A stretch of DNA of 64,000 nucleotides from Gammaproteobacteria bacterium (lineage in GTDB: Bacteria > Pseudomonadota > Gammaproteobacteria > Steroidobacterales > Steroidobacteraceae): the NCBI GenBank assembly GCA_031363155.1, contig JANLTW010000160.1, positions 4,113-68,112 on the forward strand, in the 5' to 3' direction. Below the pieces are notes generated by a model, which was not told the DNA's origin, ran no database searches, and saw only the letters and a list, made by a program, of their open reading frames with translations. This document shows, one piece after another, positions 1 to 25,574 of this stretch. Positions within the stretch are counted from its first letter, which is position 1, and each line of letters starts with the position of its first letter. The translations under genes and the position numbers were made by a program.

Positions 1-3000
1 ACCTAACACACCGCCGCGCTCGCTGATGGATTCAAACTCGCGGCACACGGCCTCTTCCACCATGTCGGTCAGGTAGTCAATCATGTAGGAACCCTGCCAG
101 GGATTCTGGGTCGCGTTCAATCCCAGTTCGCGATTGATGATCAGCTGGATCGCGACCGCGCGCCGCACGCTTTCTTCGGTCGGCGTGGTCAGCGCTTCAT
201 CAAAGGCATTGGTGTGCAGGGAATTGCAGTTGTCGAACAACGCGTACAAGGCCTGCAGCGTGGTGCGGATATCGTTGAACTGGATCTCGCGCGCGTGCAG
301 GCTGCGGCCCGAGGTCTGGATGTGATATTTCAGCATCTGGCTGCGCGCGCTGGCGCCGTAGCGTTCACGCATCGCGCGCGCCCAGATGCGCCGCGCGACC
401 CGGCCAATCACCGCATACTCGGCGTCCATGCCATTCGAGAAGAAAAAGCTCAGGTTGGCAGCGAAGTCATCGATCTGCATGCCGCGTGCGAGGTAGTACT
501 CGACGATGGTGAAGCCGTTCGAGAGCGTAAAGGCCAGCTGGCTGATCGGATTGGCGCCAGCCTCGGCGATGTGGTAGCCGGATATCGATACCGAGTAGAA
601 ATTGCGCACGTTGTGGTCGATGAAATACTGCTGCACGTCACCCATCAGTCGCATGGCAAATTCGGTGGAGAAAATGCAGGTGTTCTGCGCCTGATCCTCC
701 TTGAGGATGTCCGCCTGCACGGTGCCGCGCGCCAGACTCTGCGCTGCGGCGGCAATCTTGCGGTACTCGGCTGCGCTCAGCAGTTCCTGGCCGTCGACGA
801 CAATGCCCACCAGCTGATCCGAACTCAGGCCTAACAAACCAAGGCCGAGACCGTCATGACCCTCGGGCAGCTCGCCCACGTAGCTCGCGCTCGGGATGCC
901 GGCCGCCTGCTGCTGTGCACGCAACTGGTCGATATGCCGCGCGGCGCGCGGCCAGCGGCCCTCGCTACGCAGAAACCGCTCGACCCGCTGATCGATGGCG
1001 GTGTTCATGAACATCGCGAGCAGCATTGGTGCCGGGCCGTTGATGGTCATCGACACGGAGGTGTTCGGCGCGCACAGGTCGAAACCCGAATAGAGTTTCT
1101 TCATATCATCCAGCGTCGCGATGCTGACGCCGGAATTGCCGGTGCGGCCGTAGATGTCCGGACGCAGGTCCGGGTCCTCGCCATACAGCGTGGTCGAATC
1201 GAATGCGGTCGACAGGCGCGTGGCGTCGGCGTCGCGAGCTAACAAATGAAAGCGGCGATTGGTGCGCTCGGGCGTGCCTTCGCCGGCAAACATGCGCGCG
1301 GGGTCTTCGGCCTCGCGGCGATACGGATAGACGCCGGCAGTGTAGGGATAGGCGCCCGGCAGATTCTCGTTGCCGAGGAAGCGCAGGATGTCGCCCAGGT
1401 CCGTGAGCCGCGGCGCGGCAATTTTCGGCACCTTGTTGCGGCTCAGGGTCTCGAGGTAGTTGTCGCCGCGCACCTCTTTGCCGCGCACCACGTAGCTGTA
1501 TTGCGCCTCGGTGATCGCCTTGATCCGCGCCGGCCATTCCCGCAGCTGCGCCACGCCCCCGGCGCCGACCGCATCCAGCGCCCGGTGGTAGGCGAGCCGC
1601 AGCGCCTGCCACGCCGCTTCGGACTTGCCGCTCTCGAGCACGGCGGCGGGATAGCGATCCAACAAAGCCGGCAATTCGGCATCGCCCAAGACCTGCAGGG
1701 CGCGATGCAGGCTTTGCGCCTCGCTGGCCGCCTTGGCCGCTTGCTCCAGCTCCGTACGGGTAGCGCGGACCACGGCGGCAATGTCAGCCAGGTAGCGGCC
1801 GCGATTCTCAGGGATAAGCGCAGTGCGGCCGATCTCCGCGGTCGTGGCCGGCGCCACCTTGGAGATCGCAGCGCTCAGCCAGTTCCCGGTAGTACCGGCA
1901 TTGGCGTCGAGGCGCGCACACAGGGCTGCGAACAGGCGATTGACGCCCGGATCGTTGAACCGGCTGGCAATGGTCGGGTACACCGGCACATCGCTGTCGG
2001 CAATTTTCATGCGCTGCGGGTGATTGCGCCGCCATTGCTTGCGCACATCGCGCAGCGCGTCCGCGGCGCCGCGTTTTTCAAATTTGTTGAGCACCACCAG
2101 ATCGGCGAAATCGAGCATGTCGATCTTCTCGAGCTGGCTCGCGGCGCCATAGTCGGCGGTCATCACATAGGTGGAAATGTCCACCAGGTCGACAATTTCC
2201 GTGTCGCTCTGGCCAATGCCCGCGGTCTCCACCAGGATCAGATCGAAGCCCGCCTGCTGATAGAGCTCGATCACGTCCTTCAGCACCACACTGGTCGCGA
2301 GATTCTGGCGCCGTGTCGCCAGTGAGCGCATGAACACGCTGGAATTCGACAGGCTGTTCATGCGAATGCGATCGCCTAACAAGGCGCCGCCCGAACGACG
2401 GCGGGTCGGATCCACGGCGACCACGGCAATTTTCCGCTCCGGGTACGCACGAATCAGCCGCTGCAGCAGTTCGTCGGTGAGCGATGACTTGCCGGCGCCG
2501 CCGGTGCCGGTGATACCGACCACCGGCGCGCGCGCCACCGGCCGCGCCAGTGCCTTGCGCAGGGCCTCGGTCCCGGCCCCCTGCTGGCCCGCCTCGCCTT
2601 CCAGCATCGTGATGCAGCGCGCCAGCTGGCGATGCTCGCCGGCGTTGAGTGGCGCCATCGCAAATGCCGGCCGGCGCGCGGCCCGCACCCGTCGCAACAC
2701 ATCGTTGATCATGCCCTGCAGACCTAACAAGCGGCCATCTTCCGGCGTGTATATTTTTTCGACGCCGTGGTGTTCCAGCGCCGCTATCTCCTGCGGCGCG
2801 ATCGTGCCGCCGCCGCCGACGATCACGCGTATGTGCTCGCAGCCTTCGGCGCGCAAGGTATCGACCATGTAGGCAAAATATTCGTTATGGCCGCCCTGGT
2901 AGGAACTGACCGCGACCGCATCGGCGTCTTCCTGGATCGCCGCGCGCACGATGTCGGCCACCGAGCGGTTGTGCCCGAGGTGCACGACCTCGGCGCCGCC

Positions 3001-3141
3001 CGACTGCAGCAGCCGCCGGATCATGTTGATTGCCGCATCATGGCCGTCAAACAGCGATGCCGCGGTGACAAAGCGCAGCGGCGCTTGGGGCTCGGCGGCC
3101 GTAATTGCTGACTGTGATTGCGCTTTCGAGGGACTGGCCAT
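1..3141 (-). CDS. icmF: Fused isobutyryl-CoA mutase (IcmF-type: B12-binding domain + MeaB-like GTPase + mutase barrel). The C-terminus is cut by the window edge.
   Basis: My own minus-strand translation from the ATG (complement of 3139-3141) gives MASPSKAQ..PLRFVTAASLFDGHDAAINMIRR (B12-binding domain), the P-loop GITGTGGAGKSSL, ..RRFHLLARD.., and ..ISERGGVLG at position 1. It is absent from the ORF track because it runs off the left edge without a stop. Confidence 0.85.
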   Translation of the reverse strand, partial: MASPSKAQSQSAITAAEPQAPLRFVTAASLFDGHDAAINMIRRLLQSGGAEVVHLGHNRSVADIVRAAIQEDADAVAVSSYQGGHNEYFAYMVDTLRAEGCEHIRVIVGGGGTIAPQEIAALEHHGVEKIYTPEDGRLLGLQGMINDVLRRVRAARRPAFAMAPLNAGEHRQLARCITMLEGEAGQQGAGTEALRKALARPVARAPVVGITGTGGAGKSSLTDELLQRLIRAYPERKIAVVAVDPTRRRSGGALLGDRIRMNSLSNSSVFMRSLATRRQNLATSVVLKDVIELYQQAGFDLILVETAGIGQSDTEIVDLVDISTYVMTADYGAASQLEKIDMLDFADLVVLNKFEKRGAADALRDVRKQWRRNHPQRMKIADSDVPVYPTIASRFNDPGVNRLFAALCARLDANAGTTGNWLSAAISKVAPATTAEIGRTALIPENRGRYLADIAAVVRATRTELEQAAKAASEAQSLHRALQVLGDAELPALLDRYPAAVLESGKSEAAWQALRLAYHRALDAVGAGGVAQLREWPARIKAITEAQYSYVVRGKEVRGDNYLETLSRNKVPKIAAPRLTDLGDILRFLGNENLPGAYPYTAGVYPYRREAEDPARMFAGEGTPERTNRRFHLLARDADATRLSTAFDSTTLYGEDPDLRPDIYGRTGNSGVSIATLDDMKKLYSGFDLCAPNTSVSMTINGPAPMLLAMFMNTAIDQRVERFLRSEGRWPRAARHIDQLRAQQQAAGIPSASYVGELPEGHDGLGLGLLGLSSDQLVGIVVDGQELLSAAEYRKIAAAAQSLARGTVQADILKEDQAQNTCIFSTEFAMRLMGDVQQYFIDHNVRNFYSVSISGYHIAEAGANPISQLAFTLSNGFTIVEYYLARGMQIDDFAANLSFFFSNGMDAEYAVIGRVARRIWARAMRERYGASARSQMLKYHIQTSGRSLHAREIQFNDIRTTLQALYALFDNCNSLHTNAFDEALTTPTEESVRRAVAIQLIINRELGLNATQNPWQGSYMIDYLTDMVEEAVCREFESISERGGVLG

Positions 3142-3165
3142 ATTGCAATTTACCTGCACGTAACT

Positions 3166-3187
3166 TAAATTACTCGTCAGTAAATTA
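3166..3187. promoter_or_regulatory. Candidate TetR-type operator in the divergent icmF/tetR intergenic region
   Basis: The sequence TAAATTACT-CGTC-AGTAAATTA is a 9-bp inverted repeat (8/9 matching) with a 4-bp spacer. It lies in a 63-bp AT-rich gap between two divergent start codons. Confidence 0.45.
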
Positions 3188-3204
3188 ATGATACGATAGC
3201 TTGC

Positions 3205-3897
3205 ATGCTAAAGACAAGGTCTTTGACCGCCAAGTCCGTCACGCCGCCGCGCCGGGGGCGCCCACCGTCCCTGTCACCCTGGCGCGATGTTGCAGCGCGG
3301 GACGCCGAACGCGAGCGCAAACGCACCGCGTTGATCCGCGCCGCCGCCCAGGCGTTCCGCGCCAATGGCTTTCATAACACCTCGCTGGATGATGTCGCCG
3401 CCGCCGTGGGGGTCACCAAGCCGCTGGTCTATCACTACGTGGGCAACAAACAGCAGCTGCTGTTTGAGTGCTTCTGCACCGGCGTCGAGCAGATCCGCGC
3501 CGCCTTCAAGACCGCCGAGCACAGCGGCACCACTGCGCGCGAACGCCTGGTGCGGGTGTTAGCTGGTTATGCCGAAGCCATTACCGGCGATTTTGGCTGG
3601 TGCATGGTGCGCGCGGAGGACCTGGACCTCGACGCCGCATTGAGCTCGCGGGTCAAACAACTGAAGTCGGAAATCGACCAGGGCCTGCGCCGCCTGCTGC
3701 GCGCCGGCATCGAGGATGGTTCGATTCGTGGCTGCGATCCCAAGATGACGGCGTTCGCCGTCGCCGGAGCGCTCAACTGGATCGCCCACTGGCATCGCGG
3801 TCGCGAGGCGCTGACGCCTGCAGAAATCGCCGCACGCTTCATCGATTTGTTTGAGCTCGGACTGGCGCCGCGCGCGGACCGCTCCCGGCGCCGCTGA
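3205..3897 (+). CDS. TetR/AcrR family transcriptional regulator
   Basis: 230-aa ORF with the N-terminal HTH FHNTSLDDVAAAVGVTKPLVYHYVGNKQQLL typical of TetR. The start codon is uncertain. Confidence 0.8.
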   Translation: MLKTRSLTAKSVTPPRRGRPPSLSPWRDVAARDAERERKRTALIRAAAQAFRANGFHNTSLDDVAAAVGVTKPLVYHYVGNKQQLLFECFCTGVEQIRAAFKTAEHSGTTARERLVRVLAGYAEAITGDFGWCMVRAEDLDLDAALSSRVKQLKSEIDQGLRRLLRAGIEDGSIRGCDPKMTAFAVAGALNWIAHWHRGREALTPAEIAARFIDLFELGLAPRADRSRRR

Positions 3898-3969
3898 GTC
3901 ATGCAGGTTTTGAGGCACAGGCCTAAAATGTCACCGTGGAGAAGATCATGAAAGCTGGAGAAGTGGCAA

Positions 3970-5148
3970 ATGTCTGACGCAATTGTTCTGCTCTCTGCCA
4001 AGCGCACACCGATTGGCGCTTTTCAGGGCGTGTATTCCGCCACCACGGCGCCGGCCCTGGGCAGCGCTGCCTGCAAGGCAGCGATCGACGCGGCTGGCAT
4101 CAAAGCTAACGAAATCGACGAGACCATCATGGGCTGCGTATTGCCCGCGGGCCTCGGCCAGGCGCCCGCGCGTCAAGCCGCGATCGGCGCTGGCGTACCG
4201 GTGGCAACGCCGGCCACCACCATCAACAAGATGTGCGGTTCGGGCATGAAAGCGCTGATGCTGGCGGCGGACCAGATTCGCGCCGGCGGCGCCAATATCA
4301 TGCTGGCCGGCGGGCTCGAATGCATGACCAATGCGCCGTACCTGCTGCTGAAAGCGCGCTCCGGCTATCGCATGGGCAATGGCGAACTGCTGGATCACAT
4401 GTTCTATGACGGCCTGCAAAGCCCCTGGGATGGCCAGATGATGGGCTGCTTTGCGGAAAATACCGCCGATAAATACCAGTTCACGCGCGCCGCGATGGAT
4501 GCTTTTGCGGCCGAATCGGTGCGGCGCGCACTGGCGGCGGTGGAATCCGGCGCTTTTGCCGCGGAGCTCGCCCCGGTCACGGTCAAGAGCCGCAAGGGCG
4601 ATGTCGTTGTCAGCCAGGATGAAACGCCCTTCACCTGCGACATCGCCAAGATTCCGACGCTGAAACCTGCGTTCCGCAAGGATGGCGCGGTGACAGCCGC
4701 ATCGTCGTCGTCAATTTCGGATGGTGCTGCGGCTGCCATCCTGACACGCGAATCCATTGCCAGGGCGCGCGGCCTCAAGCCGCTCGCGCGCATCGTGTCC
4801 TACGCCAGCCACGCGCAGGAACCCGCGTGGTTCACGACTGCGCCAGCCGGCGCGATCCGCAAGGCGCTGCAGGGGGCCGGCTGGGAAGCTAACAGCGTCG
4901 ATCTGTGGGAAGTCAACGAAGCCTTCGCGGCGGTCGCCATGGCCGCCGCGCGCGACCTCGGTATCGATCATGCGCGCCTGAATGTCAATGGCGGCGCCTG
5001 CGCACTGGGGCATCCGGTGGGCACGACCGGCGCGCGTATCGTTGCGACCCTGGTGCACGCGTTGCGGGCCCGCGGCGGCAAGCGCGGCGTGGCATCGTTG
5101 TGCATTGGCGGCGGCGAAGCCACCGCGATGGCGCTCGAAATCATCTAG
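3970..5148 (+). CDS. Acetyl-CoA C-acetyltransferase (thiolase II)
   Basis: 392-aa ORF with the active-site Cys context INKMCGSGMKA and the C-terminal motifs NVNGGACALGHPVG and CIGGGEA. Confidence 0.9.
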   Translation: MSDAIVLLSAKRTPIGAFQGVYSATTAPALGSAACKAAIDAAGIKANEIDETIMGCVLPAGLGQAPARQAAIGAGVPVATPATTINKMCGSGMKALMLAADQIRAGGANIMLAGGLECMTNAPYLLLKARSGYRMGNGELLDHMFYDGLQSPWDGQMMGCFAENTADKYQFTRAAMDAFAAESVRRALAAVESGAFAAELAPVTVKSRKGDVVVSQDETPFTCDIAKIPTLKPAFRKDGAVTAASSSSISDGAAAAILTRESIARARGLKPLARIVSYASHAQEPAWFTTAPAGAIRKALQGAGWEANSVDLWEVNEAFAAVAMAAARDLGIDHARLNVNGGACALGHPVGTTGARIVATLVHALRARGGKRGVASLCIGGGEATAMALEII

Positions 5149-5191
5149 TCCGGCATTTGTCAGCCCGCAGTTTGTTAGTGGAGTTCGGATC

Positions 5192-6802
5192 ATGACCCAG
5201 GCAATTGAACGGGATGTAATGGAGTGCGACGTCGTCATCGTCGGCGGTGGGCCGGCGGGGCTCGCGTGCGCGATTCGCCTCAAGGAGCGCCAGGCCGACC
5301 TCGAGATCATCGTGCTCGAAAAGGCCGCCGCGATCGGCGCGCAGGCGCTGTCCGGCGCCGTGATCGAGCCCGGCCCGCTGGATGAGCTGCTGGCCGACTG
5401 GCGCAAGACGCCGCCGTCGATCTGCGTGCCGGCGAAGCGCGATGAATTCAGTTTCCTGACCCGCAGCGGCAAGACCCGCCTGCCGACGCCGCCACAGCAG
5501 CACAATGCCGGCAATTTCATTGTTTCGTTAGGTGAACTGATGCCGATTCTGGCGCAGCGTGCTGAGACTCTCGGCATTAATATCTTCCCGGGATATTCCG
5601 CCGCACAGACGCTCCATGACGCGGACGGCAAGGTAGCCGGTGTGCAGATCGGCGACCAGGGCGTCAGCAAGGATGGCTCGCCGGGTCCAAATTTCACCCC
5701 CGGCCCCGAAGTGCGCGCGCACATCACCGTGTTAGCCGAAGGCTGCCGTGGCAATGTCAGCAAGCAGCTGATCCGCACGTTTGCGCTCGACCAGGACTGC
5801 GACCCACAGACCTACGGTCTCGGTTTCAAGGAACTGTGGCAATTGCCGGAGGGGCGCGTGGAGCCCGGACTGATCCAGCACAGCGTTGGCTGGCCGCTCG
5901 ACAGCGGCACCTATGGCGGCAGTTTCATCTATCACCTGGACCGCAATCGCGTCTACATCGGCTATGTGGTTGGCCTCGACTATCGCGATCCGCGCCTCAA
6001 GCCCTTCGAGGCCTTCCAGCAATTCAAGCATCATCCGTCGGTGCGCCCACTGCTGGAGGGCGGCGAGATCGTCGCGGCCGGTGCACGCACGATTTCGGCT
6101 GGCGGCTGGCAATCAACGCCGCGCCTCGAGATGCCGGGCGCACTGCTGATCGGCGATGCCGGCGGCACGCTCAATGTGCCGAAGATCAAGGGCATCCACC
6201 AGGCGCTGCGCAGCGGCATGTTAGCTGCCGAGCACATCGCGGCGACCGGCGGGAGCGCCGGATTCGATGCGCTGTGGCGCGCATCGCCCGGCGGCCAGGA
6301 ACTGCGCAAGGTGCGCAATATCAAGCCCGGCTTCAAGCGCGGGCTGTGGTTCGGCATGGCCAACGGCGCCTGGGAGACGGTCACCGCCGGCCACTCGCCG
6401 TGGACCCTGAAGAACAAGGCCTGCCATGCGGAAACCAAGCGACTGGCTGAGTTCAGCTCCCCGGACCGCGACTGGGTCGACCGCAGCCTGCCGCCGCGCG
6501 ACCGGCTCGCGTCAGTGTTCTTTGCTAACAACTCGCATGACGAAGCGCAGCCCGCGCACCTCAAGGTCGCCGACACCAGCATCTGCGCAACCAGGTGTGC
6601 GCAGGAGTTCGGCAATCCCTGCCAGAACTTCTGCCCGGCGAACGTCTACGAAATGGTGGACGACGGCGCGGGCGGCAAGCGCCTGCAGATCAACGCGGCC
6701 AATTGCGTGCACTGCAAGGCGTGCGACATCAAGGATCCGTACCAGATCATCACCTGGACGACTCCCGAGGGTGGCTCAGGCCCGATCTATCAGTCGTTGT
6801 AA
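5192..6802 (+). CDS. Electron-transfer flavoprotein:ubiquinone oxidoreductase (ETF-QO)
   Basis: The track ORF 4982..6802 is trimmed to the ATG at 5192, which follows GGAG. MTQAIERDVMECDVVIVGGGPAGLACA is an FAD fold, and the C-terminal CxxCxxC (NAANCVHCKACDIKDP) is a 4Fe-4S motif. Confidence 0.9.
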   Translation: MTQAIERDVMECDVVIVGGGPAGLACAIRLKERQADLEIIVLEKAAAIGAQALSGAVIEPGPLDELLADWRKTPPSICVPAKRDEFSFLTRSGKTRLPTPPQQHNAGNFIVSLGELMPILAQRAETLGINIFPGYSAAQTLHDADGKVAGVQIGDQGVSKDGSPGPNFTPGPEVRAHITVLAEGCRGNVSKQLIRTFALDQDCDPQTYGLGFKELWQLPEGRVEPGLIQHSVGWPLDSGTYGGSFIYHLDRNRVYIGYVVGLDYRDPRLKPFEAFQQFKHHPSVRPLLEGGEIVAAGARTISAGGWQSTPRLEMPGALLIGDAGGTLNVPKIKGIHQALRSGMLAAEHIAATGGSAGFDALWRASPGGQELRKVRNIKPGFKRGLWFGMANGAWETVTAGHSPWTLKNKACHAETKRLAEFSSPDRDWVDRSLPPRDRLASVFFANNSHDEAQPAHLKVADTSICATRCAQEFGNPCQNFCPANVYEMVDDGAGGKRLQINAANCVHCKACDIKDPYQIITWTTPEGGSGPIYQSL

Positions 6803-6817
6803 GCAGGCGCGCCACTC

Positions 6818-7948
6818 ATGGTGTCGGAATCCCGCCCTCGCCGCTCCGGCCTGCGCAAGCGTTATGACGCGGAACTTGCGACGCAGGGATTCAGCGCTGA
6901 CCCGGCGCAGCAGCAGGCGCTGGAAAAACTGGAGCTGCTGCGCGCGCGGCTGATCCGCGCGGAGCGCGACCAGGCCGACACGGTCCAGAAGTTGTTACGC
7001 AGTTTGCGTGTCAGCAAACAGGCTGCTGCGGTGCGCGGCGCCTACCTGTGGGGCGGCGTGGGCCGCGGCAAGACCTGGCTCATGGAGCTTTTCTTTCAAA
7101 GCCTGCCTTTTGAACGCCGCCAGCGCAGCCACTTTCACCGCTTCATGCAGCAAGTACATGCGGGGCTCAAGCGGCACGCAAAAAAAACCGATCCGCTCGC
7201 GCCGGTTGCCGCGGATATTGCACAAAAGTGCCGGGTGCTGTGTCTCGATGAACTGTTCATCAGTGATATCACCGACGCCATGCTGCTCGGCAGCCTGTTT
7301 CAGCGCCTGACTGCCAACGGCGTGACCCTGGTTTTCACCTCTAACGTGCCGCCACAGGGCCTGTACCGCAACGGCCTGCAGCGCCAGCGTTTCCTGCCGG
7401 CCATCGCCCACCTGGAGCAGCAGCTGGACGTGGTCGCGGTCGATGGCGGCTTCGACTATCGACTGCGCCAGCTGACCAAGGCGCGCATCTACCTCGACTC
7501 GGCGGATGCCGCAACGCCGGCTGCGCTGCGGATAATTTATGACGATCTAGCGGATGACGAAGCCGACGACGGCACCAGACAGATCACCGTGCTGGGGCGC
7601 AAGATCCCGATAGTCCGCGAAAGTGACAATGTCATCTGGTTCGAGTTTGCTGCGATCTGCGGCGGGCCGCGTGGCCAGACCGATTACATCGAGATCGCGC
7701 GTGAGTACCAGTCGGTGCTGGTGGCTGACATCCCGATGCTGACGGCGGCCGATGACAATGACGCGCGCCGCTGCATCGCACTGGTGGACGAGTTCTATGA
7801 TCGCGGCGTGAAACTGATCGTGTCCGCGGCCGCGCCGCCAGCCGCACTGTATCGCGGCGAGCGCCTCAAATTCGAATTCGAACGCGCTGCGAGCCGCCTG
7901 GTCGAAATGCAGACCAAGCGCTATCTCGCCAGGCCGCACCTCACCTGA
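6818..7948 (+). CDS. zapE: AFG1/ZapE family ATPase
   Basis: 376-aa ORF with the Walker A motif LWGGVGRGKTWLM and a Walker B-like LCLDELFISD. Confidence 0.8.
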   Translation: MVSESRPRRSGLRKRYDAELATQGFSADPAQQQALEKLELLRARLIRAERDQADTVQKLLRSLRVSKQAAAVRGAYLWGGVGRGKTWLMELFFQSLPFERRQRSHFHRFMQQVHAGLKRHAKKTDPLAPVAADIAQKCRVLCLDELFISDITDAMLLGSLFQRLTANGVTLVFTSNVPPQGLYRNGLQRQRFLPAIAHLEQQLDVVAVDGGFDYRLRQLTKARIYLDSADAATPAALRIIYDDLADDEADDGTRQITVLGRKIPIVRESDNVIWFEFAAICGGPRGQTDYIEIAREYQSVLVADIPMLTAADDNDARRCIALVDEFYDRGVKLIVSAAAPPAALYRGERLKFEFERAASRLVEMQTKRYLARPHLT

Positions 7949-8176
7949 GCGCTCGCCTGCGAGCGGCCCACGATCGGCACCTTGAGCGCGGCCGAGTAGC
8001 GGCAAATGGATGCCGTGCTGCGCAAATTACCGGGACGCGCAGCCGAACTGGGCCCGGCGCATGAGTTATGAGGGTTTTCCTGTGAGCTGCGTCGGCATGC
8101 CACACAGCCCGTGCCAATTACACTCGGCTTGCCTAAACTGCCTGCCATACCACATCGTCAACCGGGAGCATCGCTC

Positions 8177-11100
8177 GTGTCGCAAAGCGTACCCAAGGCC
8201 CGACTGAGTCTGATCGAGAAAATCGTGGCCGCCGCCCCGGCGCGCGATCGCGATGCCAGCAGCGCCGCATTCCTGCGCGCGTACTTCCGCGGCGTCGGCG
8301 ACATTGATCTCGCGGAACGTGCCGCGAAGCTGCTCCGGTCGATTGCGTTAGCTCATCGCCACCTGGGGGCCAGGCGACGGCGCGGCACGCCACTGGTCCG
8401 CGTGTTCAATCCCGCGCAGAAGCTGGATGGTTTTGAATCCCAGGGCACGATTGTTTTTGTCATCGCCGACAACATGCCGTTCCTGCTGGACTCGATCAAT
8501 ATTGTCCTGGCGGCGGCAGCCGCCGGCGTCAACTTTATCGCACACCCGGTGTTCAGCGCGCAGCGCGACGCCAGCGGGCGCTGCCGATCGCTGCTGTTAG
8601 CAGATCCGAAGGACGGCAAGGTGCAGGAGTCCTGGCAGATGTTCGAAATCGATCGGCAGGAGTCGGCCGCGCATTGCCAGGCCTTGCAGGATTCGATCAC
8701 CAAATCACTGCGTGACGTGCGTGTTGCGGTCGCCGACTGGCGCGCGATTCGCGCCAGGATCCGTGCAATCTCCGCGGGCCTGGCGGCCTCACCGCCGCGG
8801 CGCACAGCGGCTGTAGAGACGCGGGAAGCGTGCGCGCTGCTCGACTGGATGGAAGGCGAACACTTCATTTTTCTGGGCTACCGGCACTATCAGCTGCGGC
8901 GCGGCAGCGAAATCGACCTGCTGCTCCCGACCAGCAAGAGCGGCCTCGGCATACTGCGCAATGACTCGGCGCGCGGTCGCGGCGCTACCGCGCCTAACAA
9001 ATTGGCCGGAACCATGCGCGCGCTGGCGCGCGATCATTCGGTTTTGGTGCTGACCAAGGCCAATTCCACCTCGACTGTACACCGCGGCACTTACCTGGAC
9101 TATGTCGCCGTCAAGGAGTTCGATGCGACGGGCGAGCCCTGTGGCGAACACCGCTTTCTGGGCCTGTGGACGTCGACGGCGTATTTCGCGAGCCCCGGCG
9201 AAATTCCGGTTCTGCGCCGCAAAGTGCAACAGGTCATCCAGCACTTTGGGCTCGACCCGGCGGGTCACGATGCCAAGGCCGTGTCAGCTGTCATGGAAAC
9301 CTATCCGCGCGACGAACTGTTTCAGGCGACGACCGCGGAGCTGGTCGATATCGCGCGCGGCGTGGTCAACCTGTACGAGCGCCGCCAGACGCGCCTCATG
9401 ATGCGCCGCGATCCCTTCGGCCGATTCTGGTCCTGCATGGTCTATGTGCCGCGCGACCGCTATACGACCGATGTGCGCCTGCGTATTGAAAAACTGATCC
9501 TGACGCGTTTTGGCGGCACGCACGTCGAAACACAGGTGCAGATTTCCGACACCAGCCACGCGCGCCTGCATGTCGTCGTCAGGCTCGCGGTCGCGGATCG
9601 CCCAGCGCCCGACTTCGGCACACTGGAACATGACATCGCCCGGGCCGCCATGACCTGGGATGACCGCTTGCGCGAGGCCTTGCTGGCCAGACATGAGCCC
9701 ACCGCAGCGCTTACGCTGGCGCAGCGCTACAGGAAAAGCTTTCCGGTCGCCTATCAGGATGAAGTCGAGCCAGTCGATTCGCTGGATGACATCGCGGCTC
9801 TGGAAACCTTGTGTGCCAGCCCGGAAGCCCTGCACCTCAGCCTGCATCGACCACCGGGCGCGCCGCTCAACCGGGCGCATCTGAAGCTCGTCAAACTCGG
9901 CGATCCGATCCCGATCTCGGACTTGCTGCCGATGATGGAGAACTTCGGTCTGCGCGTGCTGGCCGAACGGCCCTATTCGCTGCGCGACGTCGCCGGCGGA
10001 CCCGCCTGTGTGCAGGACTTTGAATTCGATTCGCGCTCCGGCACCGGCCTTGACATCGATGCGGTGGCAGCGCGCTTCAGCGAGGGCTTTCTCGCCGCCT
10101 GGCGCGGCGACGTGGAGAACGACGGCTTCAACCGCCTGTTGTTAGGCGCGGGCCTGAACGCGCGCGAGATCGTGATCCTGCGATCGTATTGCCGTTATCT
10201 GCTGCAGACCGGCCTGCCGTTCAGCCAGGCCAACATGGAGCGCGTGCTGGCGACACATGCGGGCATCGCGCGGCAGTTTCTCGAATTGTTCTCCGCGCAG
10301 TTCGCGCCGCAGTTCCGCGGCGCACGCGCGCCGGCCATCAAGTCCACCATCGCCGCCATCCGCAAGGGGCTGGATGGCGTGACCAGCGCTGACGACGATC
10401 GGATACTGCGTGCTTATCTCGCGGTCATTGCCGCAACGCTGCGTACCAATTTCTACCAGGCAGATGCCCGGGGTGCTGCCAAGTCCTATGTCGTATTCAA
10501 GTTCGATCCGCGCCAGATCCCGGATTTGCCTGCACCGCGGCCCAAATTCGAGATTTTCGTGTACTCGCCGCGCGTCGAGGGCGTGCACCTGCGCATGGGA
10601 CAGGTCGCACGCGGCGGCATACGCTGGTCGGATCGCCGCGAAGATTTCCGCACCGAAGTGTTAGGGCTGATGAAGGCGCAGAACGTCAAGAACACATTGA
10701 TCGTGCCAGTGGGCGCCAAAGGCGGCTTCTTTCCGAAACAAATGCCGGCCGGGGCCAATCGCGATGCGGTCCAGGCGGAAGGCATCGCCAGCTACCAGAT
10801 CTTCATCCGCGGACTGCTCGACGTGACCGACAATATCGTCAACGGCAAGATCGTCCCACCGCAATCGGTGGTACGGCGCGACCCCGACGATCCCTACCTG
10901 GTCGTTGCCGCCGACAAGGGCACCGCCACCTTCTCCGACATTGCTAACAAGATCTCGGTTGATCACGGCTTCTGGCTGGGGGATGCGTTCGCCTCCGGCG
11001 GCTCCGCGGGTTACGACCACAAGAAAATGGGCATCACGGCGCGCGGCGCCTGGGAATGCGTGAAACGCCATTTTCGGGAAATGGGCATCGATACGCAGGA

Positions 11101-12997
11101 GCAGGACTTCACCGTGGCCGGCGTCGGCGACATGGCCGGCGACGTTTTCGGCAACGGCATGCTGTTGTCGAAACACATCTGCCTGCAGGCGGCCTTCAAC
11201 CACCAGCATATTTTCCTCGACCCGGCACCGGACGCCGCGCGCTCGTTTGCCGAACGCGAGCGACTCTTCAACCTGCCCAGATCCAGCTGGGATGACTACG
11301 ACCGCAAGCTGCTATCGCGCGGCGGCGGCATCTTTGCGCGCAGTGCCAAGACTATTCCCCTGTCCAACGAGGCGCAGGTCATGTTAGGTCTGGGGGCCAG
11401 CGCGGCGCCCAACGTTGTGATCCACGGCATTCTCGGCATGCAAGTCGACTTGCTGTGGAACGGCGGCATCGGCACCTATGTCAAGGCCAGCACTGAAAGT
11501 CATCAGGATGCCCGCGACCGCGCCAATGATGCGGTGCGCATCGACGGCGGCAAGCTGCGTGCCCGCGTCGTTGGCGAGGGCGGCAACCTCGGCTTTTCGC
11601 AGCGTGGCCGGGTCGAGTACGCACTGGCCGGTGGTCGCATCAACACCGACTTCATCGACAACTCGGCCGGCGTAAACACCTCGGACCTGGAGGTCAATCT
11701 CAAGATCCTGCTGAGCCCCGAGGAACGCGCCGGCCGGTTGAAACGTCGCGATCGCGACTCTTTGTTAGCCAGGATGACCGACGAGGTCGCGGCGCAGGTG
11801 CTGCGCAACAATTACCTGCAGAGCCAGGCGATCAGCACGCTGGAAGCGCAGGCGACACGGCGCATGGCCGAACTGCAGTACCTGATTCGCAGCATGGAGC
11901 GGGCCGGAGAACTCGATCGTGCGCTCGAGTACCTGCCCGACGATGAGAGCATCGCCGAGCGCCGCAAGCAGGGACTCGGATTCACGCGCCCGGAGCTCGC
12001 GGTTTTGTTAGCCTACAGCAAGATCTCGCTCAACAACCAGCTGCTGGATTCAGACGTTCCCGAGGACAGCTACCTTGGCAACGAACTGGAGCGTTATTTC
12101 GCCGACCCGATACGCCGACGGTTTGCGCGCGCCATCGGCAAACACCGCCTGCGCCGTGAAATCATCGCGACCGCGGCGACTAACAGCCTGGTGAATCGCA
12201 TGGGACCGAGTTTTGTGCTGCGTGCGCAGGACGATACCGGCGCGACGCCGGCGGAAATTACCCGCGCCTACTCGATCGCGCGCGAGGCCTTTGGCATGCG
12301 CGCGCAATGGGCCCGGATCGAGGAGCTGGATAACCGCATTCCGGCGCCGGTGCAGTACGGCATGATGGCCGAGACCAGCCGCATACTGCGCCACAGTACC
12401 TACTGGCTGCTGCGCGAGCGGCGCAGCGAGCTCGCCATCGAGGCGCGTGTCAGGGAATTTGCCGAGCCTCTGGCACGTCTCGCCCGGACGCTCGACAAGT
12501 CGCTGGCCGGTATCGATCGCGAGCACCAGCAACAGTCATTGGCGATACTGCACAAGGCCGGAGTGCCAAAAGAGCTCGCTGGTTTCATGGCCAATATCGA
12601 GGCGCTCGGCTCGGCCTGGGACATTGCCGAACTGGCCGCCCAAAACCACGGCAAGATCGAGGACACCGCCAGCATCTGGTTCCGTTGCGGCGCCGGTCTG
12701 GGCCTCGACTGGTTGCGCTCCGAAATCGAACGCATGCCAGTGGATGGCCAGTGGCAGGCGGTGGCGCGCTCGGGTTTGCGGGACGCCGCAGCCAAGCTGC
12801 AACGCAGCCTGAGCGGTCGCGCGCTCACGCATCGGTCCCGCGGCACTGCGGATCAGCGAATCGCCAGTTGGCTAACAAGCCTGGGCGCGTCACTGACCGT
12901 ATGGCAGCGCACGCTGAAGGACATACGCGGCAGCGGCAACGCTGATTTCGCGACCTTGTCGGTGGGCGTGGACGCATTGCGCAGACTCGCTGGCTGA
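8177..12997 (+). CDS. gdhB: NAD-specific glutamate dehydrogenase, large (about 180 kDa) class
   Basis: A continuous ORF of more than 1600 aa. Its central catalytic region ([48 protein letters not shown]) is characteristic of the large NAD-GDH family. I prefer the GTG at 8177 (GGGAG lies 8 nt upstream) over the track start at 8111. Confidence 0.85.
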   Translation: [1606 protein letters not shown]

Positions 12998-13010
12998 CGC
13001 GGACCGCCAA

Positions 13011-13047
13011 TCGTGCCAAGCCCAGTCGTGCCAAGCCCAGTCGTGCG
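13011..13047. repeat. Direct tandem duplication of a 15-bp unit (2 copies plus a 7-bp partial copy)
   Basis: TCGTGCCAAGCCCAG occurs at 13011-13025 and again at 13026-13040, followed by TCGTGCG. It lies just after the gdh stop, at or upstream of the GT2 start. Confidence 0.9.
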
Positions 13048-13852
13048 CGGGAATGGGCCGGTCCTGAGCCTGATAGTCACCACTTACCAGCGCCCCGACG
13101 CGCTGGCGGCGGTGCTTGCGACCGCGATCGCGCAGCGGGAATCTCCGGCGGAAATCCTGGTAGCCGATGACGGCTCCAGCGACAGCACGGCGGATGTGGT
13201 ACGCGCCGCCAGCCGCCAAAGCGCAGTCCCGGTGCGGCATCTGTGGCAGGAACACCAGGGCTTTCGCCTGACACGCTCACGCAACATGGCGATCCATGCG
13301 GCACAGGGCGACTACCTCGTGTTGGTGGACGGCGACATGCTGCTGCACCCGCACTTCGTCGCCGATCATCGGCGATTCGCAAAAGTCGGTCACTACACCC
13401 AGGGCGTGCGCATGCTGCTGGATGAGTCACGCACGCGGGAACTGCTGGCGGCACCGCTGACCGTGCCGACCGCAGGCAGCGCGGGTCTCGGCGGCCTGCG
13501 CCGCCTGTATGCATTGCACGCGCCGCGAGCGTCTGTCCGCCTGCGCACGATTGCTAACACGCTGATCGCCATCAAGGGCTGCAACCAGGGTTTCTGGCGC
13601 CGGGATCTGTGCGCGGTCAATGGCTTCAACGAAGAAATCACCGGCTGGGGTCCGGAGGACAAGGAACTGTGCGCACGCCTGGAATTCAGCGGCATCCGGC
13701 GCCAGAGCCTGTTGTTCGGCGGCATCGCCTTTCACCTGCGCCACCCGGGTGCCGCGCGCGAGCGCCGGGCAGCTAACGAAGCCGTGTATGGCGCCACCCT
13801 GCAAAACCGGTCGCGCCGCTGCGCTCATGGCCTGGACGGCCATGCCGACTGA
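13013..13852 (+). CDS. Family 2 glycosyltransferase
   Basis: LSLIVTTYQRPDALAAVL..ILVADDGSSDST and GDYLVLVDGDM (a DxD-like motif) are present. The true start may be the in-frame GTG at 13043, after the tandem repeat. Confidence 0.75.
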   Translation: MPSPVVPSPVVRGNGPVLSLIVTTYQRPDALAAVLATAIAQRESPAEILVADDGSSDSTADVVRAASRQSAVPVRHLWQEHQGFRLTRSRNMAIHAAQGDYLVLVDGDMLLHPHFVADHRRFAKVGHYTQGVRMLLDESRTRELLAAPLTVPTAGSAGLGGLRRLYALHAPRASVRLRTIANTLIAIKGCNQGFWRRDLCAVNGFNEEITGWGPEDKELCARLEFSGIRRQSLLFGGIAFHLRHPGAARERRAANEAVYGATLQNRSRRCAHGLDGHAD

Positions 13853-13916
13853 GAGCTCCCGGCACGGGCGCCAATGTTAGAATTGCGGCGCACCTGATTC
13901 TGGAGAGACCTGCGGC

Positions 13917-14669
<753 letters not shown>

Positions 14670-14684
14670 GCCGTATTTGTCAGC

Positions 14685-15329
14685 CTAGCCGTCTTTGAGC
14701 ACGCGGCCGGCAAGATCCGTCAGCATCGTCTCGATACGGCGCCAGTCGCTGTCGCGATCCAGTTTCAGCCCGTAATACTCCGGCACCGAACCCGCGCGCA
14801 TCGACAGATAGGTCAGCGCCGCGGTCACAAAAAATGACAACTCAAAGGCCCGCTCGCTGTCAGTCGCGCCGCTCGCCATGACGAACTCACGCATCTCGCG
14901 GCCGAACTTGGCACGCATCGCATCCAGCGTCGCGGTCATCGCCGAGCGCCGCAGCAACTCGACCGCTAACAACTCGCAGGTACGCGGCCGGCTGCGAAGT
15001 GCCCGGGCGTAGGCAAGGGCCGCGCGTACATGCCGATCGGCCTGGGATACCCCGCGGCCGTCCGTAGACGGATCGACGACGCCCGGCTTCGGCAGGAAAC
15101 TCTCGCGCTGCGACCAGGCGCGGGCCAAGCCGGTGAAATTACCGAAATAGCGATACAGCAGGCTTTTGCCGACGCCAGCTTCCTTGAGAACGGCGTTGAC
15201 GCCCAGTCCCTGGACACCATCGCGATTCCAGACTGTTTCAAAAGCCGCCAGCAGGCGGCCTTCGGTCTCCTCGCGGTCCGGCTTACGACGCCGCACGGCC
15301 AACGGCCCAGCCGTCGTAGCGGCCGCCAT
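14685..15329 (-). CDS. TetR/AcrR family transcriptional regulator
   Basis: 214-aa ORF with the HTH GVQGLGVNAVLKEAGVGKSLLYRYFGN. The start is uncertain because it overlaps the upstream gene by 47 nt. Confidence 0.75.
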   Translation of the reverse strand: MAAATTAGPLAVRRRKPDREETEGRLLAAFETVWNRDGVQGLGVNAVLKEAGVGKSLLYRYFGNFTGLARAWSQRESFLPKPGVVDPSTDGRGVSQADRHVRAALAYARALRSRPRTCELLAVELLRRSAMTATLDAMRAKFGREMREFVMASGATDSERAFELSFFVTAALTYLSMRAGSVPEYYGLKLDRDSDWRRIETMLTDLAGRVLKDG

Positions 15330-15699
15330 GCTCCTGCGCCAGCTGCCCGAGCTCCGCGGCCAGGGCCTTGATTGCGCCGACCGTCAGGTAGAGTTCACGG
15401 CTGACATGGACGCTGACCGGAAAATCCGCGGCGTCCGGTGTCGCATGCATATCGCCCTGCATACCCCGCGCCTTGAGCGCGTCCAGTAGTTTGTTAGCCG
15501 CCGCATCGTCCGGCAACGCCAGGAAAAAATCGACCGCATGTTGCCGGAAGGGATCGAGTCCATCGGCGCGCAGGCGCGTAATCAGATGTTCGTCGAAATC
15601 AACCGTGTGGTGCGCGTTTCTGGCCTTCTGCACCAGGTAGTAAATCCTGACCACCGCGAGGACCCCGGCGCCAATCAGCAGACCAAAAAACCATTTCAT
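15283..15699 (-). CDS. RraB-like (ribonuclease E inhibitor B fold) domain protein with an N-terminal TM helix
   Basis: 138-aa ORF. It has a hydrophobic N-terminus (MKWFFGLLIGAGVLAVV) followed by HAVDFFLALPDDAAANKLL..VSRELYLTVGAI..GGRYDGW, which resembles RraB-family proteins. Confidence 0.5.
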   Translation of the reverse strand: MKWFFGLLIGAGVLAVVRIYYLVQKARNAHHTVDFDEHLITRLRADGLDPFRQHAVDFFLALPDDAAANKLLDALKARGMQGDMHATPDAADFPVSVHVSRELYLTVGAIKALAAELGQLAQEHGGRYDGWAVGRAAS

Positions 15700-15705
15700 G
15701 GATAC

Positions 15706-16485
15706 CTAAAGGTAGCTTGGTTTGCGTTTGTCGAGGAAGGCCTGAATGCCCTCCTGACCCTCAGGCGTTGCCGCCTGGCTGGCAATCGTCCGGCCCTCGA
15801 GCGCCAGGTGAGTTTCCAGTGCGCCGGCCGACGCAGCTAACAATCGCTTGGCCTTGCCGACAGCATGCTTTGGGCCTGCGGCGAGTTTGTCTGCGAGCTT
15901 GAGCGCCTCGGTCAGCACCTCAGAATCGGCCACGACCTGATTGACCAGGCCCCAGGACAAGGCTTCCTCGGCGCCTAACAAACGGTTGGTCAGGATCAGT
16001 TCCATCGCCCGGCGATGCCCCACCAGCCGCGGCAGGAAAAAGGAGCTGCTGCAGTCCGGGGTCAGGGCCACGCCCGAGTAGGCCAGAGAAAACTTGCTGC
16101 TGCTGCCGCACACGCACAGGTCTGCGGCCGTCACCAGGCCAATGCCGCCACCCGCAGCGGTGCCATTGACCGCGGCTATGACCGGCGCGTCCATGCGCGC
16201 CAGATGAGAAATCGCCGCGTGCAGGAACGATGTCAGCTCACCCAGATAGGCATCGACCGCGCCGCCTTGCGCCATCATGCCGCGCAAATCGCCGCCGAAG
16301 CAGAAATGCTTGCCCGCGCCGGTGATGACGACGGCGCGAACTGCCGGGTTCGCCTCGAGCGCTACGACCGTGTCGAGCAGCTGCCGTCCCATGGCTACAT
16401 TCAGCACATTGGCGTTCTCGGGACGGTTCAGCGTCACCAGCGCCACCGCGCCGCGCTGCTCAACCAGGATTGTCGATTCAGACAT
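15706..16485 (-). CDS. Enoyl-CoA hydratase/isomerase (crotonase) family protein
   Basis: 259-aa ORF with LNRPENANVLN, VVITGAGKHFCFGGDL and AAVNGTAAGGG. Confidence 0.85.
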   Translation of the reverse strand: MSESTILVEQRGAVALVTLNRPENANVLNVAMGRQLLDTVVALEANPAVRAVVITGAGKHFCFGGDLRGMMAQGGAVDAYLGELTSFLHAAISHLARMDAPVIAAVNGTAAGGGIGLVTAADLCVCGSSSKFSLAYSGVALTPDCSSSFFLPRLVGHRRAMELILTNRLLGAEEALSWGLVNQVVADSEVLTEALKLADKLAAGPKHAVGKAKRLLAASAGALETHLALEGRTIASQAATPEGQEGIQAFLDKRKPSYL

Positions 16486-16495
16486 GGTCTGCGCC

Positions 16496-16810
16496 TTATT
16501 CGTCGGCAGCGATGATGACCCGCATGCCTGACAGTGCCTCGGTCATTTCGACCTGGCAGGAGAGGCGCGAGTTCGGTTTGTAATGTGTCAGCTCACTGAG
16601 CAGTTCGCGTTCGTCTGACATCGCGGCCGGCAACTTGCCCTGCCATGCGGGGTCAATGTAGATGTGGCAGGTCGCGCACGAACACATGCCGCCACAAATC
16701 GCGGCGACGCCGTAGTCCAGCTCACGCAGCGCCTCCATCACCTTCACGTCGGCTTTCGCCGTTACCGGGTGCTCGACCCCATCGCGATCGACAACTTTCA
16801 ACTCGGGCAT
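16496..16810 (-). CDS. [2Fe-2S] ferredoxin, adrenodoxin/putidaredoxin type
   Basis: The track ORF is trimmed to MPELKVVDRDGVEH... The cluster ligands are CGGMCSCATCH and ..SRLSCQV. Length is 104 aa. Confidence 0.85.
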   Translation of the reverse strand: MPELKVVDRDGVEHPVTAKADVKVMEALRELDYGVAAICGGMCSCATCHIYIDPAWQGKLPAAMSDERELLSELTHYKPNSRLSCQVEMTEALSGMRVIIAADE

Positions 16811-16932
16811 TGAGATTCCTGTCTTTTCATCGGGTTGCATACGATACAGCAGCACCACCGGGGCGCGCTGCGGGCGTAGTTTGCCTAGATTGCCGCGCCG
16901 CTGCCAGCGCAAAGACGCCCGCAAACCGCGGC

Positions 16933-17775: not shown

Positions 17776-18341
17776 CAGCTGCGCAGGCCGACAATTGCGA
17801 TCGCCGCGTAGACCCCATAGAGCACCGCCGCCAACTGCAATCCCTGTGCGCTATAGAGCAGCATCGAACTCAAATCAATCACAACCCAGTAGGCCCAGTT
17901 TTCCAGCTTGGAAGCAGCCGTCATCCAAGTCGCGAGGTAACTCGCTAACATGATTGCAGTGTCGAGTCGCGGCCAGGCTGCCTGGGTGTAGCGCGCGAGC
18001 CAGGGCGCGACCAGCAGGCACAGGACTGCGATGCTCATCAGGCTGAGCAGGTGCCAGCGCAGCGGCCAGGTTGTTATCCGCGGACTTGCCGCGCCGGTTG
18101 TGCAACGGCTCCAGGACCAGAAGCCGTAGCTCGAAAACGCCACATAGCTGGCCTGCATGATCGCCTGCATCGGCAGCTGCTGCCGGGATGCCAGCCAGGC
18201 TAACAACGCGGAACTGACGGCGCCGGACACCCAGCACCAGCGGCTGTGCCGCACCGCCAGCACCGCATAGCCAATGCCGGTGAGCAAGGCCAGGGCTTCC
18301 AGACCACTGACGGCCTGAAACTGCTGTAGCAAAGCTGTCAT
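17745..18341 (-). CDS. PnuC-family vitamin transporter (PnuT-like by context)
   Basis: 198-aa polytopic membrane ORF with W-rich helices typical of PnuC. Its start shares an ATGA overlap with the receptor stop. Confidence 0.7.
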   Translation of the reverse strand: MTALLQQFQAVSGLEALALLTGIGYAVLAVRHSRWCWVSGAVSSALLAWLASRQQLPMQAIMQASYVAFSSYGFWSWSRCTTGAASPRITTWPLRWHLLSLMSIAVLCLLVAPWLARYTQAAWPRLDTAIMLASYLATWMTAASKLENWAYWVVIDLSSMLLYSAQGLQLAAVLYGVYAAIAIVGLRSWWLRWRSAPA

Positions 18342-20392: not shown

Positions 20393-20395
20393 TTA

Positions 20396-20490: not shown

Positions 20491-20592
20491 GACGCGATAT
20501 GTTAGCGGACTTACGCGAAAAAGTCGCTCTTAGGGCGGCGCTCTGGTACCCTTCGCGCCCTTTTTTCCTGCGCCAATCGTCCCCAAAAAAGC

Positions 20593-22469: not shown

Positions 22470-22478
22470 AATCTGCTT

Positions 22479-23381: not shown

Positions 23382-23396
23382 GAAATCTGGTGACCG

Positions 23397-25567: not shown

Positions 25568-25574
25568 TGGATAC

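Follow-up and report, generated by a model that had tools for sequence, protein, structure and literature searches.

A hyper-abundant CTAAC word maintained at the DNA level in a Steroidobacteraceae-like lineage, a possible independent analogue of DNA uptake sequences

A short, asymmetric word, (G/C)CTAAC(A/G), recurs throughout a 64,000-nt stretch of DNA from an uncultured Steroidobacteraceae-like gammaproteobacterium (assembly GCA_031363155.1, contig JANLTW010000160.1, forward-strand positions 4,113 to 68,112; the whole stretch is called the window below). In this lineage the word is lengthened to CTAACA(A)(A). It is almost certainly real, acts at the level of DNA and is actively maintained. 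A directional force on duplex DNA, blind to orientation, creates and retains this word of 7-8 bp where the cost to the protein is low; it spaces the copies regularly, has so far left an acquired island unaffected, and has a slightly different specificity in two sister clades. Our inferences all draw on this one window of 64 kb and on some 100 kb from the same syntenic region of relatives.

Identification and enrichment of the word

Unbiased k-mer statistics placed CTAACAA (TTGTTAG on the opposite strand) and its sub-words above all other over-represented oligomers of the window, which has a GC content of 62.8%. CTAAC or GTTAG occurred 146 times, split 82 to 64 between the plus and minus strands. 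Alignment of these copies gave the consensus (A/G)(G/C)-CTAAC-(A 71% / G 24%)-(A 48%), with no conservation beyond it, and 146 of the 168 CTAA tetramers in the window were followed by C. The baseline was a 489-kb set of sequence, 60-66% GC, taken from relatives that fall outside the word-bearing clade. Against this baseline, enrichment was 8-fold for CTAACG, 14-fold for CTAAC, 57-fold for CTAACA (104 copies in the window), 145-fold for CTAACAA (57 copies) and 191-fold for CTAACAAA. The first 12,997 nt alone contained 25 copies of CTAAC (2.1 expected from the baseline relatives) and 21 of CTAACA (0.37 expected).

Most one-mismatch neighbours of the word, including those of the CTACCA type, occurred at or near baseline frequency. 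The exception was the transition neighbour CTGACA, which was about 4-fold more frequent than in GC-matched controls (45 versus 11.5 per 64 kb); CCAACA and CGAACA were about 2-fold depleted relative to controls. CTGACA is also the alternative state at polymorphic word sites, as at position 12872, where the close relative L082 (introduced below) has CTGACAA in place of CTAACAA, and may be the main state from which copies arise or into which they decay. A literature search returned three incidental matches and no description of this word as abundant. An assembly or sequencing artefact, or a planted motif, was rejected, as independent assemblies from JGI, ENA and NCBI share orthologous word positions and the copies are 2-4 substitutions away from their orthologues.

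Distribution among relatives

A species-representative genome collection yielded no relative above 61% identity in gdh, the gene for a large NAD-glutamate dehydrogenase, and none of the 80 loci from it was enriched in the word; for example, 25 kb at 62-63% GC contained no CTAACA. Graded relatives were found in a large protein collection, and their contigs are syntenic with the window. They fell into three clades:

Clade A: the window; L081 and L082 (gdh identity 91-92%); L083 (78%); 2.0-2.4 CTAAC per kb
Clade B: L085, L086 and L089 (gdh identity 63-65%); 2.0-4.4 CTAAC per kb
Clade C, syntenic: L084, L087 and L088 (gdh identity about 64%); 0-0.06 CTAAC per kb

None of 27 further control loci was enriched. 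A neighbour-joining tree of gdh grouped clades A and B as sisters with clade C just outside, a topology that fits a single origin of the word. All carriers of both clades share S-CTAAC-R, and each clade has a dialect of its own. In clade A the position after the core (+5) is A in 71-77% of copies, with a further A next to it; in clade B, G takes this position in 52-57% of copies and no A tail follows.

The synteny is interrupted between zapE and gdh. This interval (7946-8176 in the window, 770-2324 in L081, 4968-6522 in L082 and 7654-9920 in L084) holds a glyoxalase-family gene in L081, L082, L084, L088 and L089 and a MarR gene in all but L089. The window and L083 lack both genes, an indel within otherwise conserved synteny.

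Reading frames, codon choice and comparison with orthologues

An earlier note on this DNA, made from the letters and open reading frames (ORFs) alone, had described the word as embedded in conserved proteins through disfavoured codons, always in one of three stop-free frames. Those three frames account for most copies: G-TTA-G for 75, NCT-AAC for 38 and CTA-ACN for 11. A fourth, GTT-AGN, is used seven times elsewhere in the window, so that "always" did not hold. Placement within genes was likewise correct for the majority, since 90% of copies are coding; 15 are intergenic, one of them (at 5174) within the range that the note had covered. Only 4 of 54 genes are without any copy, and density is twofold higher in intergenic DNA than in coding DNA (4.3 versus 2.2 copies per kb). 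In addition, TAG stops inside GTTAG (...GT-TAG) end three minus-strand genes, at 39723, 48384 and 55482, where about 0.4 would be expected by chance; the word can thus also span a stop codon.

The first 13 kb contain icmF, a TetR regulator, a thiolase gene, a gene for an oxidoreductase resembling electron-transfer flavoprotein-ubiquinone oxidoreductase (ETF-QO), zapE and gdh. The 25 copies in positions 1-12997 comprise 16 in the G-TTA-G frame, seven in NCT-AAC, one in CTA-ACA and one intergenic. They are listed here with the genes that carry most of them (strand is that of CTAAC):

1-3159, minus strand: icmF (fused isobutyryl-CoA mutase), 5 copies, all sense G-TTA-G
3..7, plus: CTAACAC copy, icmF sense GTG-TTA-GGT (GVLG)
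831..837, plus: CTAACAA copy, icmF sense TTG-TTA-GGC (GLLG), kept in L083
1239..1245, plus: CTAACAA copy, icmF sense TTG-TTA-GCT (HLLA), kept in L083
2376..2382, plus: CTAACAA copy, icmF sense TTG-TTA-GGC (ALLG), kept in L083
2724..2730, plus: CTAACAA copy, icmF sense TTG-TTA-GGT (RLLG), kept in L083
3558..3562, minus: copy (GTTAG on the plus strand), TetR-family gene GTG-TTA-GCT (RVLA)
4106..4110, plus: CTAACG copy, thiolase GCT-AAC-GAA (KANE)
4889..4893, plus: CTAACA copy, thiolase GCT-AAC-AGC (EANS)
5174..5178, minus: intergenic copy TTTGTTAG, spacer between the thiolase and ETF-QO-like genes, just upstream of the ribosome-binding site of the latter
5527..5531, minus: copy, ETF-QO-like gene TCG-TTA-GGT (VSLG)
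5731..5735, minus: copy, ETF-QO-like gene GTG-TTA-GCC (TVLA)
6220..6224, minus: copy, ETF-QO-like gene ATG-TTA-GCT (GMLA)
6525..6531, plus: CTAACAA copy, ETF-QO-like gene GCT-AAC-AAC (FANN)
7341..7345, plus: CTAACG copy, zapE TCT-AAC-GTG (TSNV)
8177-12994: gdh, 7 TTA-sense copies (ALA, LLA, LLLG, VLG, MLG, LLA, LLA) and 4 CTAAC-sense copies (PNK, ANK, TNS, LTS)
8347..8351, minus: copy, gdh GCG-TTA-GCT (IALA); orthologues CTC/CTG
8596..8600, minus: copy, gdh CTG-TTA-GCA (LLLA), variable/indel region
8994..9000, plus: CTAACAA copy, gdh CCT-AAC-AAA (APNK), variable region; also in L082, L083 and L086
10141..10145, minus: copy, gdh TTG-TTA-GGC (LLLG), conserved throughout clade A
10660..10664, minus: copy, gdh GTG-TTA-GGG in the invariant EVLGL; 20/20 orthologues CTC/CTG
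10944..10950, plus: CTAACAA copy, gdh GCT-AAC-AAG (IANK); orthologues GCC-AAC-GCC (IANA)
11383..11387, minus: copy, gdh ATG-TTA-GGT (VMLG)
11764..11768, minus: copy, gdh TTG-TTA-GCC (SLLA)
12007..12011, minus: copy, gdh TTG-TTA-GCC (VLLA) in the conserved LLAY
12180..12185, plus: CTAACA copy, gdh ACT-AAC-AGC (ATNS); orthologues ACC-AAC-AGC
12872..12878, plus: CTAACAA copy, gdh CTA-ACA-AGC (WLTS), variable residues; L082 has CTGACAA here
13001..64000, both orientations: the other 121 CTAAC/GTTAG copies, 6-12 per 4 kb

The frames and peptides that the note had given agreed with this list for the five icmF copies (positions 3, 831, 1239, 2376 and 2724) and the eleven in gdh; those for the copies in bipA (ALG, PNN, ELLD) and the enoyl-CoA hydratase gene (LLA, LLG) were also correct. 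The longest gdh ORF begins at 8111, but a GTG start at 8177 is indicated by homologues, which are 1606 aa long, and by the database protein P0134, which is 99.9% identical to the gdh product of the window.

Codon choice within these frames runs against the habits of the genome. Leucine is written mainly CTG (57%) and CTC (19%), as had been stated, followed by TTG (14%), TTA (4.3%) and CTA (1.7%). Outside the word TTA makes up only 0.9% of leucine codons; it does occur there, for instance in the GGT-TTA-CTG of arnT at 29680-29688 to which the note had pointed. The calculation that the note had proposed, the share of TTA and CTA codons that lie inside the word, was run: 75 of 95 TTA codons stand in G-TTA-G, where neighbouring-codon frequencies predict about 18% (binomial p = 3e-38), and AC follows 11 of 37 CTA codons. 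GCT, CCT and ACT form 7-9% of their respective codon families, and GCT precedes AAC in 23 of 47 cases versus 198 of 2480 (8%) elsewhere. The silent choices extend outward from the core. Before a word-TTA the ratio of TTG to CTG was 29:9, versus a background of 271:1252 (odds ratio 15, p = 2e-14), and the next third position outward was T in 14 of 29 cases versus a background of 15%. TTG is depleted before G, which could be taken as a sign of TTG-G to TTA-G conversion; the outgroup is equally depleted, so that this is a general codon-pair bias, and the idea was rejected.

Comparison with orthologues, the second check that had been suggested, was made on gdh. In a codon alignment with 20 orthologues the residues are kept at EVLGL, IAN, LLAY, TNS, LLAR, LLLG and ALAH, and at these sites this genome alone spells the word; the orthologues have CTC or CTG, GCC-AAC or ACC-AAC. 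Three gdh copies (8596, 8994 and 12872) lie in variable or indel regions. IAN is followed by K in the window and by A, G or R in the orthologues, and the A-rich extension thus costs an amino-acid change. Across all genes shared with the clade C locus L084, residues encoded by the core were about as conserved as others (0.64 versus 0.68, p = 0.52); codons touched solely by the +5/+6 extension were less conserved (4/11, p = 0.045, a small sample). L084 served as the syntenic outgroup. In its orthologues TTA is 0.6% of leucine codons and never stands before G, NCT-AAC is absent (nine instances in the same genes of the window), and 0 of 27 window copies is present. Conserved residues with changed codons, silent choices that track the word and an outgroup without it together support the conclusion, already drawn in the note, that the word reflects DNA-level pressure exploiting synonymous freedom and not protein-level selection.

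The note had mentioned editing as an alternative source of that pressure. This was unsupported: the copies are ordinary substitutions that have been inherited and that relatives keep at the same positions. They differ from their orthologues by 2-4 substitutions, typically from an ancestral state of the CTC-GGC type, and their gapless alignment to word-free orthologues indicates that they arose by substitution. That alignment, with 90% of copies in ORFs, led us to reject inserted structured repeats of the repetitive extragenic palindrome (REP) or miniature inverted-repeat transposable element (MITE) type. A cause at the level of codons or translation, such as rare TTA codons acting as regulators, is excluded by the presence of the same word as NCT-AAC, CTA-ACN and GTT-AGN, in both orientations and in intergenic DNA. 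Likeness to the integron attC core site (GTTRRRY) was also dismissed; GTTAGC does not fit RRR, and the copies recur every 440 bp in conserved housekeeping ORFs.

Maintenance and turnover of copies

Comparison within clade A separated maintenance from shared ancestry. At four-fold degenerate third positions the window was as similar to L083 (0.52) as to the outgroup (0.53), so that silent sites are saturated at this distance. Nonetheless, 22 of 34 window word copies were identical in L083, versus a proportion of 0.27 for all 5-mers. The same codon was found in L083 for 74% of word-TTA codons, compared with 6% for CTT, 30% for TTG and 50% for CTG. Parsimony patterns (W, word; o, no word; in the order window, L082, L083 and outgroup L084) were WWWo 14, ooWo 12, WWoo 6, oWoo 6, Wooo 2 and WoWo 1; 14 sites are common to all of clade A, with eight recent single-lineage gains and one apparent loss. 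A retained ancestral core is thus joined by continuing gains. Better-matching copies were not significantly better conserved (20/2 versus 9/3, p = 0.32).

The gdh genes of clades A and B together have 40 distinct word sites, six of them shared, and those of clade C have none; convergence at the shared sites, mostly [S/P/T/A]-Asn, is plausible. At two places in the gdh alignment (nt 1400/1401 and 4436/4437) L085 has CTAAC where L086 and L089 have GTTAG one nucleotide away: L085 reads TTG-CTA-ACA or GTG-CTA-ACG and its relatives TTG-TTA-GCT or GTG-TTA-GCC, with a Thr/Ala difference. These flipped and shifted copies suggest that it matters more whether a copy lies nearby than exactly where it sits or which way it points.

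Spacing, orientation and occupancy

Copies are spaced more evenly than chance allows. Mean spacing is 441 bp with a coefficient of variation of 0.63, versus 0.99 +/- 0.08 for random placement, and none of 20,000 simulations was as low. There were 18 gaps shorter than 150 bp where 42 were expected, and the Fano factor in 4-kb bins was 0.26. Spacing is also regular in L081, L082 and L083. Orientation is divided 56:44, the ratio of sense to antisense copies is alike in plus- and minus-strand genes (Fisher p = 0.15), and the sign of the GC skew is constant; the word has no replication polarity across this single 64-kb window, which has neither origin nor terminus. Occupancy of synonymously accessible sites was 24% for [SPTA]-Asn, 11% for Leu-[GAVDE], 8.5% for Leu-Thr and 3.5% for Val-[Ser/Arg], and this partial occupancy means that conversion is not deterministic.

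An island of low GC (51%) at 56278-60383 departs from this pattern. It contains seven CTAAC, against 7.8 in shuffled sequence, and the longest word-free gap of the window (1796 bp) lies inside it. Besides a 283-aa ORF without annotation, the island encodes a cytochrome P450 and an acyl-AMP ligase that has a carrier-protein domain. A tRNA-Arg(TCG) gene adjoins it at 60433-60509, an arrangement typical of integrated genomic islands. In an arn-like cluster for the aminoarabinose modification of lipid A at 28906-36103 (ArnT, a DegT-type aminotransferase, a family-2 glycosyltransferase, a formyltransferase and an epimerase/dehydratase) the word has its normal density.

We also considered a preference for convergent close pairs (CTAAC...GTTAG within 110 bp). 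Of 14 adjacent pairs of copies this close in the window, 9 were convergent; in pooled independent loci the excess was weak (18 of 44), and clade B did not show it. The close convergent pairs, 43-103 bp apart, were not robust across loci. The excess is probably chance, the comparison was post hoc, and we rejected the preference. Close pairs include 18718/18800, 20415/20501, 30037/30120 and 41936/42009, several being 82-86 bp apart. One member, an off-consensus CTAACC at 20415, lies within the aptamer of a thiamine pyrophosphate (TPP) riboswitch (Rfam RF00059, 73 bits; 20382-20492, minus strand) upstream of an operon for a TonB-dependent receptor, a PnuC-like transporter and a kinase; its partner, the CTAACA copy at 20501, is just outside.

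Discussion

These observations are best read, tentatively, as an independently evolved analogue of DNA uptake sequences or, more broadly, as a selected hyper-abundant word like the highly iterated palindrome HIP1 of cyanobacteria (GCGATCGC). The closest parallels lie with the DNA uptake sequence (DUS) of Neisseriaceae (GCCGTCTGAA-type) and the uptake signal sequence (USS) of Pasteurellaceae (AAGTGCGGT-type). Those too are short non-palindromic words, over-represented tens to hundreds-fold, at about 1 per kb or denser, in both orientations, without replication polarity and more evenly spaced than random. They share with the word described here its many intra-ORF copies in the cheapest frames, core residues that are no less conserved than the rest, a greater density outside coding sequence, a density no higher than chance in an acquired island, copies kept at the same positions among relatives, and dialects. 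Even spacing, lack of orientation bias, many copies within ORFs, frame bias and absence from genes without homologues have been reported for DUS and USS (PMC1939737; PMC2817400; PMC3630211), as have DUS dialects (PMC3630211) and a correlation of USS frames with preferred codons (PMC2817400).

The resemblance has limits. The sequence is unrelated to GCCGTCTGAA and to AAGTGCGGT / ACAAGCGGT, and the word is at most an independent analogue, not a dialect. Its host belongs to an uncultured Steroidobacteraceae-like clade, known only from metagenomes, with no known competence. It is also AT-rich in a GC-rich genome, which forces rare codons. With HIP1 it shares hyper-abundance (15- to 300-fold for HIP1), a frequency often above one per gene, location in coding sequence, non-random spacing, conservation by selection as opposed to replenishment by repair, and copies conserved between genomes beyond neutral expectation. 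HIP1 differs in being a GC-rich palindromic octamer with two methylase targets, in a periodicity of 10-90 kb compared with the regularity at about 0.4 kb seen here, and in its phylum-wide occurrence, whereas the present word is limited to two small sister clades. It is best filed as a new, independent member of the hyper-abundant words, neither a DUS/USS dialect nor a HIP-type palindrome.

From these parallels we infer a link to DNA uptake, with a putative receptor and presumed competence. We propose tentatively, giving it somewhat short of an even chance, that the word is tied to transformation as an independent analogue of DUS and USS; that it represents a third uptake or self-recognition word system, evolved independently in this lineage, is a possibility that we would put forward with reserve. 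Point substitutions create copies wherever the protein tolerates them, usually at Leu followed by G, A, V, D or E (xxG-TTA-Gxx) or at Ser, Pro, Thr or Ala followed by Asn (NCT-AAC), and the copies, once present, far outlast normal silent sites. In the proposed system, fragments bearing the word would be favoured by a DNA receptor that belongs to the transformation machinery and sits at the cell surface or in the periplasm; conspecific DNA with the word would be taken up and recombined more often, and word-creating substitutions would spread through biased uptake plus selection. Regular spacing would follow if, as we suppose, one word per fragment suffices for uptake or saturates it.

Several points weigh against the uptake interpretation. 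The 64 kb of the window and some 100 kb from relatives contained no competence, pilin, methylase or restriction genes, and annotation of the remaining window genes gave no competence, restriction-modification or DNA-binding candidates. At 5 bp, or 7 with its two degenerate flanks, the strongly constrained core falls short of DUS (10-12) and USS (9 plus flanks). Density is 2.3 copies per kb, compared with roughly 1 per kb for DUS and USS, and 90% of copies are coding, whereas about half of DUS and USS lie in predicted terminators; none of the 15 intergenic copies here is in a tight inverted pair, and there is no association with terminators. The test on acquired DNA rests on one 4-kb island, and the grouping of clades A and B on a single-gene tree with a short internal branch. 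All of the sequence-level properties would also fit an intracellular function, such as an array for protein binding or methylation.

That alternative, the main rival, is in our view less likely than a link to uptake but deserves serious weight; a role of this kind was long proposed and debated for HIP1 (PMC5861425). A lineage-specific protein, either nucleoid-associated or an orphan DNA methyltransferase with an asymmetric site of 6-7 bp, would bind or modify the word, and selection would retain one copy per few hundred bases to serve the organisation of the chromosome, its repair or its epigenetic marking as self. S-CTAAC-R resembles an asymmetric methylase motif of the Type IIG, Type III or bacteriophage exclusion (BREX) type, and the flipped gdh copies of L085 compared with L086 and L089 suit a site whose presence matters. 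A non-palindromic site is, on the other hand, unfit for strand discrimination based on hemimethylation, the DNA examined in the window and the relatives’ loci encodes no candidate protein or methylase, and the imposition of an AT-rich site at the cost of rare codons is left without explanation. Regular spacing and conservation beyond silent-site saturation are the arguments used for selection on HIP1 (PMC5861425). Similar arguments were made for DUS and USS, for which no intracellular binding protein has ever been found (PMC1939737), and HIP1 itself, its function long obscure, is now suspected from recent work of a link to transformation.

The remaining explanations are poorer fits than an intracellular function. 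A neutral mutational or repair bias could convert near-cognates to a functionless CTAAC, in the manner of very-short-patch (VSP) repair, which in E. coli produces an excess of CCWGG and a deficit of CTAG and likewise shifts word frequencies irrespective of coding. Strand-symmetric, lineage-specific enrichment would suit it, as would the excess of CTGACA and the shortage of CCAACA and CGAACA. Yet VSP repair has a small effect, calls for no conservation of positions and does not lead to regular spacing, which is unexpected from any site-autonomous bias; the 57- to 190-fold enrichment seen here far exceeds known repair-bias effects. Typical copies needed 2-4 substitutions, just 3.5-24% of synonymously accessible sites are occupied, and the same sites are retained in lineages with saturated silent sites. 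We regard such a bias as very unlikely, and the same reasoning led to its rejection for HIP1 (Xu et al., PMC5861425).

It is at least as improbable that the word is a guide resembling Chi or the FtsK-orienting polar sequences (KOPS), or a packaging signal of gene-transfer particles, directing RecBCD/AddAB, FtsK or a terminase. Short over-represented words have such DNA-level roles in many bacteria, and biased packaging would drive such a word through a population just as biased uptake would. Packaging has no need of a copy every 440 bp, however. Chi and KOPS, like the architecture-imparting sequences (AIMS), are polar, strongly co-oriented with replication in the case of Chi and KOPS, and enriched few-fold, whereas the present word is non-polar, its 56:44 division reflecting only coding constraints, and the GC skew keeps one sign across the window. 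Known Chi words suit local codon usage and are enriched only few-fold; this one runs against both codon usage and GC content.

Hyper-abundant words maintained by selection are known from very few lineages (DUS, USS and HIP1), and a 2025 survey still treated uptake-enhancing sequences as confined to two families. Their origin has long been debated, in particular whether biased uptake alone or selection is the driver, and what the receptor is. The present word offers purchase on these questions. It opposes the GC content and codon preference of its genome, so its cost is visible codon by codon; two dialects are already present; and silent-site saturation separates maintenance from shared ancestry. 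Word-free and word-bearing close relatives occur in public metagenomes, so the origin can be bracketed. In practice, the word could also help to assign contigs to this lineage during binning and to recognise foreign DNA within it. Were it a third uptake system, its origin would lie between the word-free clade C, which includes a closed 4.39-Mb contig, and the two dialect clades, and gene content across that bracket would show the gain of which receptor creates an uptake-sequence system and at what pace a genome is then rewritten. If the word is linked to transformation, uptake-sequence biology would extend to environmental Gammaproteobacteria; if it is not, these genomes would carry a new, regularly spaced chromosomal signal.

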